From Candidatus Spongiisociaceae bacterium (lineage in GTDB: Bacteria > Actinomycetota > Acidimicrobiia > Spongiisociales > Spongiisociaceae), in the NCBI GenBank assembly GCA_965202665.1, contig OZ241841.1, positions 1,952,001-2,016,000 on the forward strand: DNA of 64,000 bases, read 5' to 3'. Of the stretch, positions 30,664 to 46,900 are shown piece after piece. The translations under genes were made by a program, and so were the position numbers. The notes under the pieces were generated by a model. That model searched no databases. It worked only from the letters and a program-made list of their open reading frames with translations, and had not been told where the DNA came from. The first letter of the stretch is position 1. Each line of letters begins with the position of its first letter.

Positions 30664-31605
30664 ATGGCCCCCCTCCCACCGGCCCAACCGCTGGACGGAC
30701 TGCGGAGGCGGGTGGCCGCCTCCGCCACCAGCCCCTTCGGGCATGTGGACTATCCCCTGTCTGACACGTTGCGTTACCGGGGCGATCCGGGAATGTGCGG
30801 TCCCGGGTCTGTTTCCTGGAAGGTGATTGGCGACGTCGCCGCTTTCGCGGGCGGCATCCGGGCGTTGCTGGTCCAGTCCGCCCATCCGGAGGTGGCGGCG
30901 GGCGTGGCCCAGCATTCCCGGTATCAGGATGATCCGCTGGGCCGTCTGTCCCGCACCTCCGCCTATGTGACCGCTACCACTTTCGGGGCCCGCCCGGAGG
31001 CGGAGGCGGCCGTGCAACGGGTGCGGGACGCCCACCGGACGGTGCGGGGGATTTCCCACCGGGGACTGCCTTACGCGGCCGACGACCCCCCACTTTTGGC
31101 CTGGGTGCACAATGTGCTCACCGAGTCGTTTTTGGCCGCCAACCAGTTGTACGGGAGGGCGCCGCTCACCGCCGCCGAGGAGGACCGGTTCGTATCCGAG
31201 CAGGCCGTCATCGGGCGGCGGATGGGGGCCGACCCGGCGCCCGACCGGGCCGGTCGGTTGCGCCGATGGGTGGCTCGTCATCCCGACTTGGGCCCTTCGC
31301 CGGGGATGCGGCAGGCTTTGGATTTCCTGGCCGACCCGCCGTTGCCGCCGGCGCAGAAGGCCGGTTACCGGTTGCTTTACATGGGGGCGGCGGCTTCCCT
31401 GCCCGCGGAGATCCGCCGGGTGCTGGGGGTGCGGACCCGTCCGGGCGGGGTTTTCCTGGGCCGCCGGGCGGTTTCGTTTTTGCGGTGGGCGCTCGGGTCT
31501 TCCCCATCCTGGAATCTGGCTTTGCTCCGCACCGGTTCCCCAGTGCCCGCCGGCCTTTTCCGGCAACCGCTCCCCGAATCCTCTGCCTCAGGCGAAGGCC
31601 TTTGA
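30664..31605 (+). CDS. Oxygenase MpaB family (DUF2236) protein
   Basis: GIRALLVQSAHPEVAAGVAQHS, RLSRT, LLAWVH. Confidence 0.85.
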   Translation: MAPLPPAQPLDGLRRRVAASATSPFGHVDYPLSDTLRYRGDPGMCGPGSVSWKVIGDVAAFAGGIRALLVQSAHPEVAAGVAQHSRYQDDPLGRLSRTSAYVTATTFGARPEAEAAVQRVRDAHRTVRGISHRGLPYAADDPPLLAWVHNVLTESFLAANQLYGRAPLTAAEEDRFVSEQAVIGRRMGADPAPDRAGRLRRWVARHPDLGPSPGMRQALDFLADPPLPPAQKAGYRLLYMGAAASLPAEIRRVLGVRTRPGGVFLGRRAVSFLRWALGSSPSWNLALLRTGSPVPAGLFRQPLPESSASGEGL

Positions 31606-31615
31606 TCTCCAGAGC

Positions 31616-31700
31616 CGAAAAGAACGAACCCCGCGGCCGCGGGGTTCGTTGGCCCCGGGATATTGACACTCCCGGGGGTGGCATTTTGTTGTAACAACAG
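31616..31700 (-). ncRNA. Candidate small RNA A1 (~80 nt), NYN-associated
   Basis: Minus-strand TTGACA (31736-31731), 19 nt, TGc-TATACT (31711-31706); hairpin with 9-nt loop; 28-bp palindromic terminator (31623-31650) followed by CUUUU. Confidence 0.65.
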
Positions 31701-31851
31701 AAGTCAGTATAGCACAGGCTGGAGGCGATCTGTCAAATCGGTTCGCGGCGCGGTTCAAGAATTTGGAATTCTCGCGGGCGGGCCCGGGGCGGAGCCGTTC
31801 CGCCCTTGCTCCCCCTGGGGCTGCAGGTGTGAATATTCCTTCGGCTCGGTT

Positions 31852-31937
31852 CGAAAAAGAACGAACCCCGCGGCCGCGGGGTTCGTTGGGCCCGGGATAT
31901 TGACACTCCCGGGGGTGGCTTTGTGTTGCAACAACAG
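31852..31937 (-). ncRNA. Candidate small RNA A2 (~80 nt), NYN-associated; repeat of A1
   Basis: Minus-strand TTGACA (31972-31967), 18 nt, TATATT (31948-31943); same hairpin; identical terminator palindrome (31860-31887) followed by CUUUUU. Confidence 0.65.
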
Positions 31938-31976
31938 CGGTAAATATAACTTGGGGGTGGGGCTATTGTCAAGCCG

Positions 31977-32597
31977 ATGACGCAAAGATCGCAACGGGTG
32001 GCCGTCTATGTGGACGGTCTCAACCTTCACAACGGGTTGCTTAAGTCAGGGCTCCCCAGGTGGCTTGATCCGGTTGCGTTAGGCCGGGAGGTATTGCAGT
32101 CCGGCCAGAGGCTGGTCGGGGTGCGATATTTCACTTCACTGTTGGTCAAGAGCAGGCGTGGACGGCATCAACAGGATCTATACCTGCAAGCTTTGGAGGC
32201 GCAGGGTGCGGAAATTGTGCTGGGGCGGTTTTATGTTTACCCGGTGCGATGCCCCCGGTGCGGGCGAGAGCGGATGGAAGCGGAGGAGAAGCAAACCGAT
32301 GTCAACATAGCGGTGCGGTTGCTGGCCGACGCCCATCAGGATCTGTATGACCGGGCGGTTCTGGTTTCGGCGGACAGCGACCTGTTGCCGCCGATGTTGG
32401 AAATTCCGCGCTTGTTTCCCGGCAAAAAGGCAGTGGTGGGGTTTCCGCCCGGGTTAATGTCTAAGGAGTTACGCCATAAAGTTTCAAACTTCCGGTTGAG
32501 CGCCGCTCACATCCGGCGGTCGCTGGCTCCCTCTCCCGTGGTCACGTCGGCGGGGCGTAAGATCGTCGCTCCGCGGGGATGGTTGCCGGGAAAGTAG
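31977..32597 (+). CDS. NYN domain (LabA/DUF88, PIN-like) putative ribonuclease with CxxC insert
   Basis: VYVDGLNL, EEKQTDVNIA, VSADSDL acidic motifs; RCPRC; TATTGT 7 nt before the ATG (leaderless). Confidence 0.9.
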   Translation: MTQRSQRVAVYVDGLNLHNGLLKSGLPRWLDPVALGREVLQSGQRLVGVRYFTSLLVKSRRGRHQQDLYLQALEAQGAEIVLGRFYVYPVRCPRCGRERMEAEEKQTDVNIAVRLLADAHQDLYDRAVLVSADSDLLPPMLEIPRLFPGKKAVVGFPPGLMSKELRHKVSNFRLSAAHIRRSLAPSPVVTSAGRKIVAPRGWLPGK

Positions 32598-32648: not shown

Positions 32649-33461
32649 ATGCGCATCGTCGTCGTGGGGCCCGGACGGGCCGGAGGATCGTTGGCGGCGG
32701 CGGCCGCGGCCGCCGGTCACCGGATAGCCGCCCTGGTAACCCGTCGCCCGGACGACCGGGAGGTGGCCCGCTGGTTGGGGGCCGAAACCCGCTTGATCGG
32801 AGAACCTTTGCCGGAGGCCGAACTGTTGGCGGTGGCGGTGCGCGATCAGGTCCTGTCCGAAGTGGCCGCCGCCTTGGCCCCGCAGGCGGGAAACTTTGCG
32901 GGGGCGGTTCATCTTTCCGGGCTGGCCCCGGTTGCGGTCCTGCAACCGTTGGCGGCGGCCGGGGCGGAAATCGGATCCTTTCACCCTTTGCAAACCTTGC
33001 CCGATTGGCGGAGGGGATCCCGTTCCCTGGCCGGGGCCTGCGCCGCCCTCACCGCTCCGCCCGGCCTGGCCGGGCTGTTGGAGGAACTGGCCGAATCGCT
33101 GGGGATGGCCTCCATCCGGCTGGCCGAAGAACAAAAGCCCCTCTATCACGCGGCGGCGGCCGCCGCCTCCAACTATGTGGTAACCGCCCTGCATGTTGCG
33201 CAAACCCTGTTCGCCGCCGCCGAAGTGGACTACCGGGTCGCCCGTCCGCTGGTGGAAACGGCGGTCGCCAACGTTTTTGAAGAAGGGGCGCGGGCCGCCC
33301 TGACCGGCCCCATCGCCCGGGGCGACTTGGAAACCGCGGCCGGCCAGGTGCGGGCGGTGGAGCGGGCCGTCCCCCACTTGGCCGGCGCCTTTCGGGATTT
33401 CGGACGGGCGGCTGCCGACTTGGCCGGGACTACCGGGCGGATGGCCGAGGTCCTGCGATGA
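32649..33461 (+). CDS. Rossmann-like + DUF2520 protein (PanG-like)
   Basis: VGPGRAG, HLSG, FHPLQT, YHAAA, LTGPIARGD; upstream of panC. Confidence 0.88.
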   Translation: MRIVVVGPGRAGGSLAAAAAAAGHRIAALVTRRPDDREVARWLGAETRLIGEPLPEAELLAVAVRDQVLSEVAAALAPQAGNFAGAVHLSGLAPVAVLQPLAAAGAEIGSFHPLQTLPDWRRGSRSLAGACAALTAPPGLAGLLEELAESLGMASIRLAEEQKPLYHAAAAAASNYVVTALHVAQTLFAAAEVDYRVARPLVETAVANVFEEGARAALTGPIARGDLETAAGQVRAVERAVPHLAGAFRDFGRAAADLAGTTGRMAEVLR

Positions 33462-40359: not shown

Positions 40360-40501
40360 ATTCGGCGCCGGGCGGCTTCGCCGGTTGGCATAGTTTCGGC
40401 GGGCGGGTAACCTGTTTGCGGTAAGAACAAACCCTGGGCTGTCAGATTTGAGCGAGAAGAAAAGGCCCCATCCAGGGGGGCTAGCCACTAGGAGGCTAAA
40501 A

Positions 40502-42649
40502 ATGTTGAAGTACAAGAAGTTGGCGGCGGTGCTAATCGCCTTGACTTTGCTGGCCGCGGCCTGCGGCGGCGATGACGCCACCACCACAACCACTACCGCC
40601 GCTCCCACCGCAACCACTTCGGATGCGGGCGATTCCGCGGACACCAGCGCCGCGCCTGCTGAGCCGATGACGGACGTTCGGGTGGGTTTGGCCTATGACA
40701 TCGGCGGACGGGGCGACGGTTCTTTCAACGACGCGGCTGCGGCCGGCCTGGACCGGGCGGCGGCGGAGTTGGGCGTGGAGACTGCGGAGTCGTCGGCCAA
40801 TGAGGACGGCACCAACCGCGAAGAAATGCTGGCCCTGCACTCCGAAGAGGGGGCGGATTTGGTAATCGGCGTCGGGTTCCTGTTCGACGAGCCTATGAAC
40901 GTGGTGGCGTCCGAATACCCGGAAACCAATTTCGCAATTGTGGATTCAGTGGTGGATCAACCCAACGTGGCCGGGTTGATTTTCGCCGAGGAGCAGGGGT
41001 CGTTTCTGGTGGGGGTGGCGGCCGCTCTGAAAACGGGCACCAACAGAATAGGTTTCCTGGGCGGGGTGGACATCCCGTTGATTCACGCTTTCGAGGCCGG
41101 TTTCCAAGCGGGGGTGGCGGCGGTGGATCCGTCCATCGTAATTGATTCCCAGTATTTGACCCAGTCTCCGGACTTCAGCGGGTTCAACGACCCGGCTGCG
41201 GGCAGGGTCGCCTCCCAATCCATGTACGAGGACGGAGCGGACATCATTTATCACGCCGCCGGCGGGAGCGGCAACGGCACCTTCCAAGCGGCCAAGGAGT
41301 ATTCGGAGAGCACCGGCGGCAAAGTGTGGGCCATCGGGGTGGACTCCGATCAGTACAACACCGCCGACGAGGAACTCAGGGACTACATTCTGACCTCCAT
41401 GCTGAAGCGGGTGGATGTGGCGGTTTACAACACCATCAAGGCGGTGCAGGACGGGATGTTCTCCAGCGGCCCGCAGAGATTCGACCTGTCGGTGGACGGG
41501 GTGGGCTACTCCACCAGCGGCGGCTTCATCGACGACATCGTTCCGCAGTTGGAAGAGTGGAAGTCGCGCATCGTCTCCGGCGAGATAGTGGTCAGCCGCG
41601 AGCGCGGCGAGGGCCTGACCGTCGTACCCGTTAGCGATACCCCGGGCGAAGGGGTCAGTTTGACGATGGCCCGGGCCAACTGGTCCACCGGTTATTTCCA
41701 GGCCGCTTTGTACCGGGCGTTGTTGCAACAGTTGGGATACGAGGTGAGCGATCCGGCTGATTTGGAGTTGGGTCCCAGCTTGGCGTATCTGGCCATGGCC
41801 GAAGGGGACGCCGACTTCTGGGTGAACAGCTGGTATCCGGGCCATAACAGTTGGCTGGAGAACCAGTTGCCGGACGGTTCCAAAGTGGGCGATCATCTTG
41901 CGGTGGTGGGCCAGGAGATGCCCGCGGGCGGTTTGCAGGGTTATCTGATCACCAAGAGCTTCGCCGAGGAATACGGGATCGCCACGCTGGATGATTTGAA
42001 CGGCAATCCGGATGCGATCGCCGCGTACGACGCCCAGGATGCCACGCCGGGCAACGGGATAGCGGAGATTTACGGTTGTCCGGAGTCGTGGACCTGCGAT
42101 GACATCATCCAGAGCCAGATCGCGTTTTCGGAGTGGGAGAACATCGATCAGATTTTGGCCGGGTACGACGCCATGTTCGCTGAGGCGGTGGCTAAGGCCA
42201 ACGAGGGGGCTCCGATGGTGGCGTACACTTGGACGCCCAGTTCCTACATCACCCAGTTGCGGCCGGGGGACAACGTGCTGTGGGTGGGGGTGGAGGATGT
42301 GCTCGATGATTCCAATCCGTTGGGTCGGGAAGGGGGCGAGGAATGGGATCAGCGGCCGGGTACGGCGGCTTTGGGCCCTGATTCCTGCCCGGATGCGGCG
42401 GAGCGCGACATCTGTCAGTTGGGGTGGGTGGCAGCGGACATTTTGGTGACCGCCCGCAACGACCTGTTGGCGGATCATCCGGCGGCGGCCAAGTTGCTGG
42501 AGGTGGTCGAGCTGAACGTAGTGGACGTGTCGTTGCAAGTGGTGGCTCAGGACGGCGGAGAGGATCCGGTGGATCTGGCCGAGCAGTGGATAGCGAACAA
42601 CCAGGCGAAGGTGGACGACTGGCTGTCCCAGGCCCGAGCCGCCGCCTAA
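40502..42649 (+). CDS. Lipoprotein fusing a BMP-family substrate-binding domain to a ProX/glycine-betaine-type substrate-binding domain
   Basis: Lipobox LAAAC; GGRGDGSFND, WAIGVDSDQ, LTSMLKRVD (BMP); ANWSTGYFQ, YGCPESWTCD, YTWTPS (ProX-like). Confidence 0.88.
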   Translation: MLKYKKLAAVLIALTLLAAACGGDDATTTTTTAAPTATTSDAGDSADTSAAPAEPMTDVRVGLAYDIGGRGDGSFNDAAAAGLDRAAAELGVETAESSANEDGTNREEMLALHSEEGADLVIGVGFLFDEPMNVVASEYPETNFAIVDSVVDQPNVAGLIFAEEQGSFLVGVAAALKTGTNRIGFLGGVDIPLIHAFEAGFQAGVAAVDPSIVIDSQYLTQSPDFSGFNDPAAGRVASQSMYEDGADIIYHAAGGSGNGTFQAAKEYSESTGGKVWAIGVDSDQYNTADEELRDYILTSMLKRVDVAVYNTIKAVQDGMFSSGPQRFDLSVDGVGYSTSGGFIDDIVPQLEEWKSRIVSGEIVVSRERGEGLTVVPVSDTPGEGVSLTMARANWSTGYFQAALYRALLQQLGYEVSDPADLELGPSLAYLAMAEGDADFWVNSWYPGHNSWLENQLPDGSKVGDHLAVVGQEMPAGGLQGYLITKSFAEEYGIATLDDLNGNPDAIAAYDAQDATPGNGIAEIYGCPESWTCDDIIQSQIAFSEWENIDQILAGYDAMFAEAVAKANEGAPMVAYTWTPSSYITQLRPGDNVLWVGVEDVLDDSNPLGREGGEEWDQRPGTAALGPDSCPDAAERDICQLGWVAADILVTARNDLLADHPAAAKLLEVVELNVVDVSLQVVAQDGGEDPVDLAEQWIANNQAKVDDWLSQARAAA

Positions 42650-42670
42650 ATATTTCCGCCAGTTGGCAAA

Positions 42671-42706
42671 ATGGAGGAGGGCGTCCCGCGGGACGCCCTC
42701 CTCCAT
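42671..42706. terminator. Perfect 17-bp inverted repeat between the two binding-protein genes
   Basis: ATGGAGGAGGGCGTCCC-GC-GGGACGCCCTCCTCCAT. Confidence 0.75.
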
Positions 42707-42777
42707 CGTTAAACGGTTCGACGGAAAAATCAAATTTTTCGGCGGTTTAGTTTTTAAGGTGTGTAGACTGCGATTTG

Positions 42778-42795
42778 GAAACCCAACATGGTTTC
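42778..42795. promoter_or_regulatory. Candidate operator
   Basis: GAAACC-N6-GGTTTC just upstream of the AAGGAGG RBS. Confidence 0.35.
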
Positions 42796-42814
42796 ATTGT
42801 AAGGAGGTGTGCAA

Positions 42815-45082
42815 ATGTTCAGATCTAGTAAGTGGCTGGCGGCGTTGGCCGTTTTGATGTTGGTCGCGGCCGCCTGCGGCGGCGGCGACGATGATGCGAC
42901 GCCCGCTCCCGAGACCCCTACCACCGTCGCGTCCGCCGGCGCGGACACCACGGAAACCACAGCCGCAACGGAGTCCCCGGATGCTGCGGAAACCCCGACC
43001 ACAACCGCGGCGGCCCCTGACGCTCCCGCCCAGCCGGAGGAGGGAATGGCCCTCCCCGGCGAAGGGGTGAGTTTGACGATGGCCCAGGCCAACTGGTCCA
43101 CCGGTTATTTCCAGGCGGCTTTGTACCGGTCGTTGTTGCAACGGTTGGGGTATGAGGTGAGCGATCCGGCTGATTTGGAGTTGGGTCCCAGCTTGGCTTA
43201 TCTGGCCATGGCGGAGGGGGATGCCGACTTTTGGGTGAACAGTTGGTTTCCGATTCACAACAGTTGGTTGGCCAACGAGTTGCCGGACGGCTCCCGGGTG
43301 GGGGATCACCTTTCTGTGATCGGTTCCGAGATGCCCGCCGGGGGTTTGCAGGGTTATCTGATTACTAAGAGTTTCGCTGAGAAGCACGGCATTGTCACTT
43401 TGGATGATTTGAATGACAATCCGGACGCGATCGCCGAGTACGACGCCCAAGATACCAATCCCGGGAACGGGGTGGCGGAGATTTACGGTTGCCCGGAGTC
43501 GTGGACCTGCGATGACATTATCCAAAGCCAGATCGCCTTTTCGGGGTGGGAGAACATTGATCAGGTGCTGGCTGGGTACGACGCCATGTTCGCCGAGGCG
43601 GTGGCTAAGGCCAACGAGGGGGCTCCGATGGTGGCGTACACTTGGACGCCTAGTTCTTATATCACCCAGTTGCGGCCGGGGGACAATGTGGTGTGGCTGG
43701 GGGTGGATAGAATTTTGGATAGTTCCAATCCGCTTGACCGGGAGGGGGGCGAAGGGTGGGATCAAACCCCGGGAACGGCGGCTATCGGCGCCGATTCTTG
43801 CCCGGACGCGGCGGAGCGGGGCATCTGCCAGTTGGGGTGGGCGGCGGCGGATATTTTGGTGACCGCCCGCAATGACTTGATTCGGAACCATCCGGCGGCG
43901 GCTAGTCTGCTGGCCAATGTGGCGTTGAACGTGGTGGATGTGTCGTTGCAGGTGGTGGCCCAGGAGGGCGGGGAGAGTCCGGTGGATCTGGCCGAGCAGT
44001 GGATCGCCAACAACCAGGACAAGGTGAATGCGTGGCTGGAAAGGGCCACCGCCGCCCATAACCGCACCGGGGAGCCGGGCGAGGGGGTGAGTTTGACGAT
44101 GGCCCAGGCCAACTGGTCCACAGGTTATTTCCAGGCGGCTTTGTACCGGGACCTGTTGCAAAGGTTGGGGTATGAGGTGAGCGATCCGGCTGATTTGGAG
44201 TTGGGTCCCAGCTTGGCGTATCTGGCCATGGCTGAGGGTGACGCCGACTTCTGGGTGAACAGCTGGTATCCGATTCACAACAGTTGGTTGGCCAACGAGT
44301 TGCCGGACGGCTCCTTAGTGGGCGATCATCTTACGGTGGTGGGCGAGGAGATGCCCGCGGGCGGTTTGCAGGGTTTCCTGATCACGAAGAGCTTCGCCGA
44401 GGAATACGGGATAACGACGCTTGATGATCTGAACGGCAATCCGGATGCGATCGCCGCGTACGACGCCCAGGATGCCACGCCGGGCAACGGGGTGGCGGAG
44501 ATTTACGGTTGTCCGGAGTCGTGGACCTGCGATGACATCATTGAAAGCCAGATCGCGTTTTCGGGCTGGGATAACATCGGCCAGGTGTTGGCCGGGTACG
44601 ACGCCATGTTCGCGGAGGCGTCGGCGAAGGCCAGCGAGGGGGCTCCGATGGTGGCCTACACTTGGACGCCGAGTTCCTACATCACCCAGTTGCGGCCGGG
44701 GGACAACGTAGTGTGGGTGGGGGTGGAGGATGTGCTCGATGATTCCAACCCGTTGGATCGGGAAGGGGGCGAGGAATGGGATCAGCGGCCGGGTACGGCG
44801 ACTCTGAGTTCGGAGTCCTGCCCGGATGCGGTAGAGCGCGGCACCTGCCAGTTGGGGTGGCTGGCGGCGGACATTTTGGTGACCGCCCGCAACGACCTGT
44901 TGGAAAACCATCCGGCGGCGGCCAAGCTGCTGGAGCTGGTCGAGCTGAACGTGGTGGACGTGTCGTTGCAGGTGGTGGCTCAGGACGGCGGAGAAACTCC
45001 GAAGGATCTGGCTACGCAGTGGATCGCCAACAACCAGAGCAAGGTTGACTCCTGGTTGGCGGTGGCCCGCGCCTCCGCCTGA
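42815..45082 (+). CDS. Lipoprotein with two tandem ProX/glycine-betaine-type substrate-binding domains
   Basis: Lipobox VAAAC, Thr/Ala/Pro linker, two copies of the PGEGVSLTMAQANWSTGYFQ...QWIANNQ domain. Confidence 0.9.
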   Translation: MFRSSKWLAALAVLMLVAAACGGGDDDATPAPETPTTVASAGADTTETTAATESPDAAETPTTTAAAPDAPAQPEEGMALPGEGVSLTMAQANWSTGYFQAALYRSLLQRLGYEVSDPADLELGPSLAYLAMAEGDADFWVNSWFPIHNSWLANELPDGSRVGDHLSVIGSEMPAGGLQGYLITKSFAEKHGIVTLDDLNDNPDAIAEYDAQDTNPGNGVAEIYGCPESWTCDDIIQSQIAFSGWENIDQVLAGYDAMFAEAVAKANEGAPMVAYTWTPSSYITQLRPGDNVVWLGVDRILDSSNPLDREGGEGWDQTPGTAAIGADSCPDAAERGICQLGWAAADILVTARNDLIRNHPAAASLLANVALNVVDVSLQVVAQEGGESPVDLAEQWIANNQDKVNAWLERATAAHNRTGEPGEGVSLTMAQANWSTGYFQAALYRDLLQRLGYEVSDPADLELGPSLAYLAMAEGDADFWVNSWYPIHNSWLANELPDGSLVGDHLTVVGEEMPAGGLQGFLITKSFAEEYGITTLDDLNGNPDAIAAYDAQDATPGNGVAEIYGCPESWTCDDIIESQIAFSGWDNIGQVLAGYDAMFAEASAKASEGAPMVAYTWTPSSYITQLRPGDNVVWVGVEDVLDDSNPLDREGGEEWDQRPGTATLSSESCPDAVERGTCQLGWLAADILVTARNDLLENHPAAAKLLELVELNVVDVSLQVVAQDGGETPKDLATQWIANNQSKVDSWLAVARASA

Positions 45083-45262: not shown

Positions 45263-45365
45263 CCCCCAAACATACCATGCCGGTGGGAATATTGTCAAAT
45301 GCCCGTAAGGCGGATGCGGGTTTATCCGACAAGGCGGCGAACGAAGCGCCGTCCTGTGGAAGTCC

Positions 45366-45440
45366 TTAAAAAGACCCGGCCCCAACAGGGCCGGGTGGTC
45401 AAGTGTTTCAAGGGCCTAACGGCCTTGAAACGTAGCGCTA
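45366..45440 (-). ncRNA. Candidate small RNA B1 (~70 nt), orphan copy
   Basis: TTGACA (45475-45470), 18 nt, TATAAT (45451-45446); GUUUCAAGG-N9-CCUUGAAAC hairpin; ACCCGGCCC-N5-GGGCCGGGU-CUUUUU terminator. Confidence 0.65.
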
Positions 45441-45493
45441 GCGTCATTATACACATTTGTCTTTCGGGTTGTCAAGCCGTCCGCCGAATTTCT

Positions 45494-45585
45494 TCATCAT
45501 CTCCTGGGCCGGTGGATCGACACTGTTGCCTCGGGGTAGCTGGCGGGGCCATGCTCGTTCCGTATGACCACCGGCCACTGGGGCG
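45494..45585 (-). pseudogene. 3' remnant of a second copy of the NYN gene
   Basis: Reads RQLP/EATVSIHRPRR** with a 1-nt insertion, against [16 protein letters not shown] at the end of the intact NYN gene; same position relative to the sRNA promoter. Confidence 0.65.
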
Positions 45586-45938
45586 CTAGGCGTACTTGGC
45601 CAGGACGTTGGTGACGGTTTGGTTGTTGCATAAGTGAGGACGATCAGCCGCATCCTCCGCCGCCACGGGATGTTGCGTCTGTGGGAATGCGACCCGCTGA
45701 CCGGCGAACCGCTCAAAATCTCTCCCGGGCCGGTGGTGCGGTATGAACGTGAACGGCTTGGTGAGTTGCTGCATATGGATGTTAAGAAGCTTTCTTCCAT
45801 ACCGCCCGGCGGTGGATGGAAGACCCACGGCCGGGGCAACGCCCCCGCCGGAGGGGCGGGGTGGACTTTTGTGCACTCTGTCGGAGGAACACTACCAACC
45901 AGCAGACTGTAACCAACCTACCGGCCATGTACATCTAG
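45586..45938 (+). mobile_element. Internally deleted IS481-family element (MITE-like, 353 bp)
   Basis: Transposase fragment TISRILRRHG...VRYERERLGELLHMDVKKL..IP.GGGW; 30-bp imperfect terminal inverted repeats (45586-45615 and 45909-45938, 23/30 by hand), both ending in CTAG. Confidence 0.8.
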
Positions 45939-46032
45939 GAACAAAGACCTCCCACTGGTCTCTGGCGGCAATCAACCTGTTTCGCGGAGGCGGGTTTGCG
46001 CGGCGGGGCGACGCGCGGTCTTTTGAGAGCGG

Positions 46033-46107
46033 TTAAGAAGACCCGGCCCTAACAGGGCCGGGTGAGTAACTGTTTCAAGGACCTAACGGCCTTGAAACGT
46101 AGCGCTG
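46033..46107 (-). ncRNA. Candidate small RNA B2 (~70 nt), directly downstream of the NYN gene
   Basis: TTGACA (46142-46137), 18 nt, TATAAT (46118-46113), starting 20 nt after the NYN stop; same two hairpins as B1. Confidence 0.68.
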
Positions 46108-46162
46108 GCGTCATTATACATATTTGTCTTTCGGGTTGTCAAGTCGTCTGCCGATTTTTTCT

Positions 46163-46900
46163 TCACCATCCCCGGGGTCGGTGGACGGACCCCACTGCCT
46201 CGGGTAGTTGGCAAGATGTGAAATCCGCTTTTGACAGTTGGTACCACCAATGTCCGCCCCTGCCATCCGTCGGCTTGCCCCGCAGATCCCCGGCTCTTGG
46301 AGAGGGGCTGGGGTTAACGGTGCCGATTGGGGCCCGTAGGCGACATGCTTGGATGGGCAACCGCAGATCGCTGTCGTTGGAGATGACGATTGCGGCGTCG
46401 ACGCGTCCTTTTAGTACATCCAGTAGCAGATGCGAGGCTACGTTCACGTCTGAGCCTTTTTCTTCGATTCGCAGATAGGAGACCATGAACCGGGCGTTGG
46501 GAACGGCTGCGCCCTGCTCGTTCTGTATAACCACCGGCCACCGGGACGTGACGATCGAAGGACGACCCTCTTGGTCTTTGGTCGCAAGTAGCCCGTTTCT
46601 CACCCTGGTGCTGAAACGGCCTTGTTCCAAGTGGTCGATGGAGCGGTGATCCTGTAACGCTCTAACGTAGGCATCTTGGTCCAGGCGCCCTTGGCGGTTG
46701 TGTTGACCGTCGATGAAGGCGGTGCAGTAGACGATCCGCTCGATTACCGCTCCCTGCTCCGTCCAGTCGCGCCGCCGGTCGATCAATCGTTGGCTCAGCT
46801 GGCGGAGGTCGAGCCATCGCCATTCGGGGATTCCCCGGCCGAACAGGGCCCTGCCCCCGTAGTAGAGGTTGAAGCCGTCAATGTACACGCCCACTTTCAT
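46163..46900 (-). CDS. NYN domain (PIN-like) putative ribonuclease
   Basis: [32 protein letters not shown]; GGAGAGA RBS; lower GC than its flanks. Confidence 0.92.

Follow-up and report, generated by a model that had tools for sequence, protein, structure and literature searches.

The window, a 64,000-nt stretch of contig OZ241841.1 from a Candidatus Spongiisociaceae bacterium, contains a gene for an NYN-domain protein, and directly upstream of it are two almost identical copies of a short unit, pointing away from the gene. The question is what these units encode, and what they have to do with the gene next to them.

The A1 and A2 units and the NYN gene

The two units form a direct repeat of 94 nt with 91% identity, at 31618-31711 (A1) and 31855-31948 (A2), with a spacing of 237 bp. 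Each has one perfect 28-bp palindrome (31623-31650 and 31860-31887), and both contain the hairpin CCCGGGA-N9-TCCCGGG and a 5' hairpin TGTTG-N3-CAACA, just as described in an earlier note on this DNA. Read on the minus strand, each unit has the order promoter, 5' mini-hairpin, C-rich leader, P1 hairpin, terminator hairpin and U-tract, and the folding z-scores of this strand are -4.6 and -3.6 for the two units. The small RNA predicted from A1 (31617-31699, minus strand, with start and end placed from the promoter and the U-tract) is about 82 nt long, and consists of the mini-hairpin P0 (31687-31699), the C-rich leader, P1 (31653-31677), the terminator P2 (31623-31650) and the U-tract. The RNA predicted from A2 (31854-31936, minus strand) is also about 82 nt long, with P0 at 31924-31936, P1 at 31891-31913, P2 at 31860-31887 and a U-tract. 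No third copy scored in searches of the 2.77-Mb genome with blastn and nhmmer, which leaves two only.

The predicted promoters, on the minus strand, are of the sigma70 type. That of A1 (31706-31736) has TTGACA at 31736-31731, a 19-nt spacer and TATACT at 31711-31706, preceded by TG to give an extended -10. That of A2 (31943-31972) has TTGACA at 31972-31967, an 18-nt spacer and TATATT at 31948-31943; it matches the consensus at 11/12 positions, where shuffled sequences have on average 0.2 sites. A consensus scan with 16-18-nt spacers has no match at the A1 promoter and finds A2 alone, because the A1 spacer is 19 nt. The report of TTGACA and TATA(C/T)T in both copies is thus correct. So is the statement that the transcribed parts are almost identical (79/83 positions), whereas the promoter spacers, said to have diverged fully, are identical at 9/18 positions.

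The same note attributed this pattern to selection on an RNA and on the promoter hexamers. The proposal is strengthened by covariation (below) and by two comparisons. In DNA contigs of a second strain, the A1 RNA has 0/78 changes, compared to 5/24 at non-hexamer promoter positions, and the A1 hexamers are unaltered; A2 is uninformative here because the second strain has no change at all over 31860-32293. Within the genus, the hexamers are preserved in 7/8 copies, the exception being a single TGGACA. The near-identity of A1 and A2 is a weaker argument than it appeared, because in the genus copies the P1 loops are common within one locus and different between genomes, and gene conversion may therefore contribute to it.

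The gene itself (31977-32597, plus strand) codes for a 206-residue NYN protein of the LabA/DUF88 type, a predicted ribonuclease with a PIN-like fold, identified by Pfam (PF01936) and as HEC-09 by PADLOC. The HEC-09 match has E 7e-55 and 183.8 bits, and aligns residues 6-202 with positions 2-202 of the 203 in the profile; the Pfam NYN match exceeds its cut-off, while sequence searches of NCBIfam and the PDB gave no match. D13, N16, E104, K105, D108, D133 and D135, together with C92 and C95, are invariant in an alignment with 38 relatives, and the CxxC hairpin is present in 151/179 family members. The structure model (pLDDT 94) is matched by Foldseek to 2qip (E 4.8e-9) and to the NYN domain of MARF1. 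The protein thus has a PIN-like fold with a conserved acidic active site, and from the fold, and from MARF1 and a Bacteroides fragilis NYN protein, we infer that it is probably an RNase. Its dN/dS against the orthologue in a sister genome is 0.18, and the GC content of the ORF is 59.7%, compared to approximately 71% in the flanks.

A possible weak -10, TATTGT (31964-31969, plus strand), is located 7 nt before the NYN ATG at 31977, and would give a leaderless transcript. It overlaps the A2 -35 (31967-31972), as had been noted; the corresponding NYN -35 matches only 3/6 consensus positions. Local competition between the two promoters is plausible, because TAnnnT occurs 7-9 nt before the start both here and in all three sister-genome copies. 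It does not extend to the family: a -10-like hexamer at leaderless distance is found at 10/84 divergent loci, compared to 12, 10, 9 and 6 in control windows, a comparison that depends on heuristic calls of the start codons. In divergent loci the median distance from the RNA -35 to the NYN start is 14 nt, and few (18/84) have a Shine-Dalgarno motif. The RNA is also found at loci where promoter overlap is impossible.

The module is flanked by two genes that lie outside it, both on the plus strand. One (30664-31605) encodes an MPAB/Lcp catalytic domain, PF09995, which we take to be DUF2236, and the other (32649-33461) a DUF2520/Rossmann-like protein, followed by panC. The position between these genes is as reported, but a clean insertion is not what we find. 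In a relative of the family, about 10 kb separates the two flanking genes, and a tilS-hpt-ftsH-fol block (gene names assigned by eye) lies in this interval. In this genome that block is near 0.99-1.00 Mb, so the module sits at a rearrangement junction. There is no target duplication at the A1/A2 locus, and no clean empty site among the relatives compared.

The RNA across the NYN family

In total 207 loci were gathered, two of the sets being the best 80 of 177 and the best 80 of 570. They were searched with a generic hairpin-plus-terminator descriptor, which was written after the loci had been viewed and which favours pairing. It matches 162 of the 192 loci that passed filters. In the 260 nt upstream, it matches 147/179 distinct NYN loci and 4/104 other genes of the same loci; the controls give 36/300 genes of this genome and 11/364 shuffles. 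These counts are descriptive, because the descriptor followed the viewing of the loci and because kin are not independent. Inspection by eye of the 35 misses indicates that most do carry the unit, in some cases downstream, while a few of these loci are truncated or have no visible unit. The labelled loci cover 16 phyla.

The structure was analysed by covariation in 58 divergent-class units out of 89 selected, none of them from this genus. In the alignment a short leader precedes P1 (8 bp), and a linker of 2 nt separates P1 from the terminator. Double changes are seen at 17/17 pairs, and 95% of cells are paired across the 58 homologues. The covariation score is 0.644, compared to 0.223 for shuffled and at most 0.176 for slid alignments, a value that is inflated by selecting for hairpins. 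Many G-U pairs are located on the promoter-bearing strand, and the promoter hexamers occur at a fixed upstream distance throughout the divergent class. P1 measures approximately 21-24 nt and abuts the terminator; its loop hardly changes within the divergent class (66/89), and its base and loop are conserved in sequence beyond what a terminator needs. The co-directional class has two hairpins of the same size, with a CCC leader and a GGCCCC base. The divergent class has no bidirectional terminator (0/90), an alternative pairing of leader with terminator has little support (69.5% paired, score 0.11), and no pseudoknot was found, the longest complement between the loop and elsewhere being 3-4 nt. 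At the gathering score Rfam matches only tRNA in the window and in 20 related loci, and in the E-value scans the matches at the cassettes are all below threshold.

A model, R1, was built on the 58 units, and so excludes this genus. Within the window, its best matches are A2 (35.6 bits, E 5.4e-8) and A1 (31.9 bits, E 6.7e-7). In the whole genome, where 150 candidates were scored, four matches have E <= 0.002, namely A2 and, at a second NYN locus, three copies, with A1 not separately among the matches listed; all four adjoin NYN genes or remnants. The earlier note would have been wrong if the unit were a dispersed REP or MITE, and the two copies in the genome and the location of the R1 matches at NYN loci indicate that it is not. 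A1 and A2 behave as selected small-RNA genes that are linked to the NYN gene. To this extent the note had the locus right; it did not see how widespread the family is, and it gave the RNA product no role.

Phylum and class scans with R1 outside this genome gave 5 + 2 matches, of which three adjoin an intact NYN gene, two are strong orphans, and two are weak and likely false. Over 96 loci there are 27 matches, most co-directional RNAs being missed, and matches were found in 1/5 distant genomes, so R1 cannot prove absence.

The position of the RNA relative to the gene is variable. R1 scores of 43-56 bits are obtained at divergent (L266), co-directional (L141, L169, L179) and downstream-convergent (L085) loci, none of which was in the training set. 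In the protein tree the orientation changes within supported clades: L085 shares a starred clade with loci of the divergent class, and L141, L169 and L179 form a starred clade surrounded by divergent loci, although enclosing forks are open. Orientation labels on the tree are partly manual (the automatic labels of L130, L182 and L047 were wrong), and only switches confirmed by the model were counted. The RNA behaves as if it were trans-acting, independent of orientation.

The RNA also varies in copy number, and is found without an intact gene. In 29 family genomes there are 23 R1 matches (three of them training sequences): nine by an intact NYN gene, eight by remnants, five orphan and one likely false. 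Strong orphan matches also occur at L260 and L270, so the RNA can be retained where no NYN gene lies close by. At L241 and L242 (G020, G007) an orphan RNA comes right after a tRNA gene; it has no promoter that can be seen, and may be co-transcribed with the tRNA. The sister genome has six units before the orthologous NYN gene, arising by threefold tandem amplification, and at least three units at each of two other NYN loci. The copies closest to the gene in the sister genome have one common P1 loop, and a different one is common to A1 and A2, a pattern that suggests concerted evolution with the cognate protein.

Among 132 flanking ORFs, taken from 72 loci, no protein is conserved as a neighbour. 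Restriction-modification, toxin-antitoxin, defence or mobile neighbours are present at about 19/72 loci, and most neighbours are housekeeping genes rather than defence genes. An integron-type cassette carries NYN and RNA with its own promoter (L031 and L033, two loci in one genome), the NYN gene is also found on a 3.5-kb E. coli plasmid and in a prophage, and the protein matches 409 plasmid records.

Candidate functions of the RNA

The explanation that we favour, and judge to be just on the probable side, is that the RNA is a type III-like antitoxin, which would bind and silence the predicted NYN RNase, by analogy with AbiF and RCd22 (below). At the level of sequence there is linkage of gene and RNA, a covarying structure, a dedicated promoter and terminator, independence of orientation, and a full set of catalytic residues; a cognate ncRNA gene adjoins the nuclease gene, and there is no protein antitoxin, as in type III systems. 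We consider it quite possible, though somewhat short of probable, that HEC-09-type NYN proteins with their two-hairpin RNAs make up a large unreported type III family, present in at least 16 phyla and on plasmids, prophages and integrons, in which the antitoxin is a free-standing gene that can invert, change place and multiply.

In such a system the RNA would be abundant, owing to its strong constitutive promoters, and expression of the NYN gene would be weak. The NYN protein would recognise P1 and its C-rich base, and the bound RNA would act as an antidote that silences the nuclease. If RNA synthesis stopped, through loss of the DNA, phage shut-off of the host or stress, the RNA would decay, and the freed nuclease would cause growth arrest. 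Additional RNA copies would raise the dosage of antidote. The module would be kept chiefly because it is selfish or addicts its host, and it might also serve in defence. Known PIN-fold toxins are VapC types, which are inhibited by proteins, and to our knowledge this would be the first PIN-fold toxin to be held by an RNA. If true, type III systems would gain a further toxin fold, a single-gene NYN family that is very common would acquire a function, and RNA-guided nucleases would have another possible origin, comparable to AbiF.

There is evidence against an antitoxin. The single HEC-09 tested by Payne et al. (bioRxiv 10.1101/2024.01.29.577857), where the family is PADLOC candidate PDLC04163, gave no phage protection; the genes next to the module are mostly housekeeping genes; and orphan RNAs occur. 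In that study candidates were cloned with approximately 150 bp of upstream DNA where possible, and its main text contains no mention that we found of an ncRNA. Such a stretch would normally include the RNA, and if the antitoxin explanation is true the antidote was probably co-cloned, which would explain the inactivity.

Much of the evidence would fit any direct partnership between RNA and protein. An RNA serving as cofactor, scaffold or sensor, which activates or steers the nuclease or holds it back until there is a foreign signal, is compatible with the linkage, the covariation and the orientation data, and also with the conservation of P1 base and loop beyond the needs of a terminator; Cas13 guides, according to a review, derive from AbiF RNAs. 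We nevertheless think this unlikely, since there is no variable segment of guide length (the short P1 runs up to the terminator, and its loop hardly varies), and since survival after gene decay and amplification of copies are easier to understand for an antidote. A little more doubtful still is a cassette with a purely cis effect, which holds down NYN expression through promoter competition at divergent loci and attenuation at co-directional loci, with the RNA incidental or a feedback operator. The median of 14 nt between -35 and NYN start, the low share of divergent loci with a Shine-Dalgarno motif (18/84), and the terminator immediately ahead of the ORF at co-directional loci are all as expected for this, and Clostridioides difficile RCd22 is described as working in cis as well as in trans. 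However, the downstream-convergent units (L085, L088, L103, L267) and the distal A1 are unable to occlude the promoter, the conservation of P1 would be unneeded, and the alternative leader-terminator pairing is poorly supported, as described above.

The units could also be read as DNA rather than RNA. A selfish, DNA-cutting cassette of the homing type, with the hairpins as DNA ends or an expression lock, would explain the many unrelated sites beside conserved genes, the direct repeats of at least 14 nt that flank 19/162 loci, and the gene-end fragments that are duplicated along with cassettes in this genus. We rate it as improbable: the A1/A2 locus lacks a target duplication, the RNase MARF1 NYN is among the closest solved folds, a CRISPR-linked NYN is described as a single-strand RNase, and the promoter, the U-tract and the polarity of the G-U pairs indicate an RNA. 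None of nine longer relatives has a listed intein domain (7,992 candidates scored), which is a weak argument in the same direction. Finally, a REP/MITE, or the chance duplication of a terminator unrelated to NYN, could draw on the hairpin-plus-terminator pattern upstream of 36/300 ordinary genes of this genome and on the tandem duplications that are common in the genus. With two copies only in the genome, R1 matches concentrated at NYN loci, and linkage and covariation across the family, this idea is refuted in substance, and we give it hardly any weight.

Type I antisense action was considered and rejected. The longest complement is 8 nt here, the family mean is 7.17 nt compared to 7.09 nt in the control (n=156), and the predicted RNA and NYN transcripts diverge and do not overlap.

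Known systems and further NYN loci

The closest known relative of the protein is HEC-09 itself, which is likewise a single-gene NYN with a MARF1-like acidic active site, in line with the profile match. The LabA-like NYN.COG1432 group (2qip) shares the fold and the catalytic acids, and the subfamily here adds the CxxC hairpin. NYN.COG1432 is listed as of unknown function (Matelska et al. 2017, PMC5499597), and the B. fragilis CRISPR-linked NYN has been described as a single-strand RNase that trims crRNA (PMC11346440). As far as these two papers were seen to go, neither states an RNA partner gene or a toxin-antitoxin role for NYN. No description of an NYN-linked small RNA was found in the literature searched, including genome-language-model preprints; a prior listing in supplements or subscription journals is possible.

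Among RNA-linked systems, AbiF with its RNA (RF03085) is similar in having an RNase gene next to a short hairpin ncRNA that ends in a terminator. The C. difficile RCd22 (bioRxiv 10.1101/2025.04.15.648962, which also cites PbAbiF) is reported to have two motif copies and to act in cis and also in trans, with direct binding. The AbiF toxin has a HEPN fold, whereas the protein here is PIN/NYN; Pfam finds NYN only, with no HEPN Abi_2 domain. The Rfam scans gave no abiF (RF03085) match, and in our family the RNA is often transcribed from a promoter of its own, divergent or convergent. The locus therefore does not belong to AbiF.

ToxIN, CptIN, TenpIN and AvcID (PMC12283969) also pair a protein nuclease with an RNA partner, and the type III layout of promoter, RNA, terminator and ORF given there is matched by our co-directional class. 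The fold is unrelated to those of the type III families, and the present locus is divergent, not an operon. ToxIN, CptIN and TenpIN are described as having a pseudoknot and processed tandem repeats, under one promoter and terminator upstream of the toxin. Here there is neither pseudoknot nor processed repeat, and promoter and terminator are present separately in each copy, which places the locus outside these three families. The DUF3800, drum and skipping-rope motifs (Weinberg et al. 2017, PMC5737381) are reported as RNAs with a terminator that go with a single protein domain and may lie on each side of it, in both orientations, much as here. They differ in the protein family and in giving no Rfam match, and our RNA consists simply of two hairpins.

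This genome has three NYN loci, with repeated units at each. The second module in the window (45342-46900, minus strand) has its NYN gene at 46163-46900 (HEC-09 E 1.3e-24) and promoter-hairpin-terminator units at 46034-46114 and 45367-45447, on the same strand and downstream of the gene. These belong to a different RNA subtype and have weak R1 scores of 12-15 bits. Between the copies there are a duplicated NYN 3' end and, by eye, an apparent IS481 fragment. The third locus (G000:C1:763200-766400; L101, L235-L237), beside argS by eye, has three divergent RNA units, of which two precede truncated NYN copies, and the RNA promoter -35 falls within the NYN coding start.

With an RNA of approximately 65-80 nt and a protein of 200 residues, and with natural examples on a Thermus plasmid and on a small E. 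coli plasmid, the antitoxin explanation would be quick to test. The RNA of the Thermus oshimai locus (L266) comes nearest to the consensus of the family, which is also present in Thermus thermophilus. On small plasmids of E. coli and E. albertii with 3-4 annotated genes (L265:1-1067, L268:2870-3875), the NYN gene is found behind repeated motifs and a terminator; R1 does not match the RNAs of these two loci. A more distant NYN gene (L232:900-1780, G001) comes after at least five tandem co-directional promoter-hairpin-terminator units. In gill-symbiont-type bacteria (L010, P0063-P0068) there is an in-frame fusion of NYN to D-alanine-D-alanine ligase. Relatives on Xanthomonas plasmids (H33-H37) are annotated as 6-hydroxy-3-succinoylpyridine hydroxylase, probably by carry-over from NicB, whose hydroxylase activity may reside in another domain.

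Two other features of this genome were noted. At 40448-45082 of the window there are two long lipoprotein genes, built from three near-identical domains of the substrate-binding type, and a long palindrome comes after each gene (36 bp at 42671). At G000:C1:1613957-1615499 there are at least 22 palindromes of 20 bp with a spacing of about 72 bp, probably a CRISPR array.
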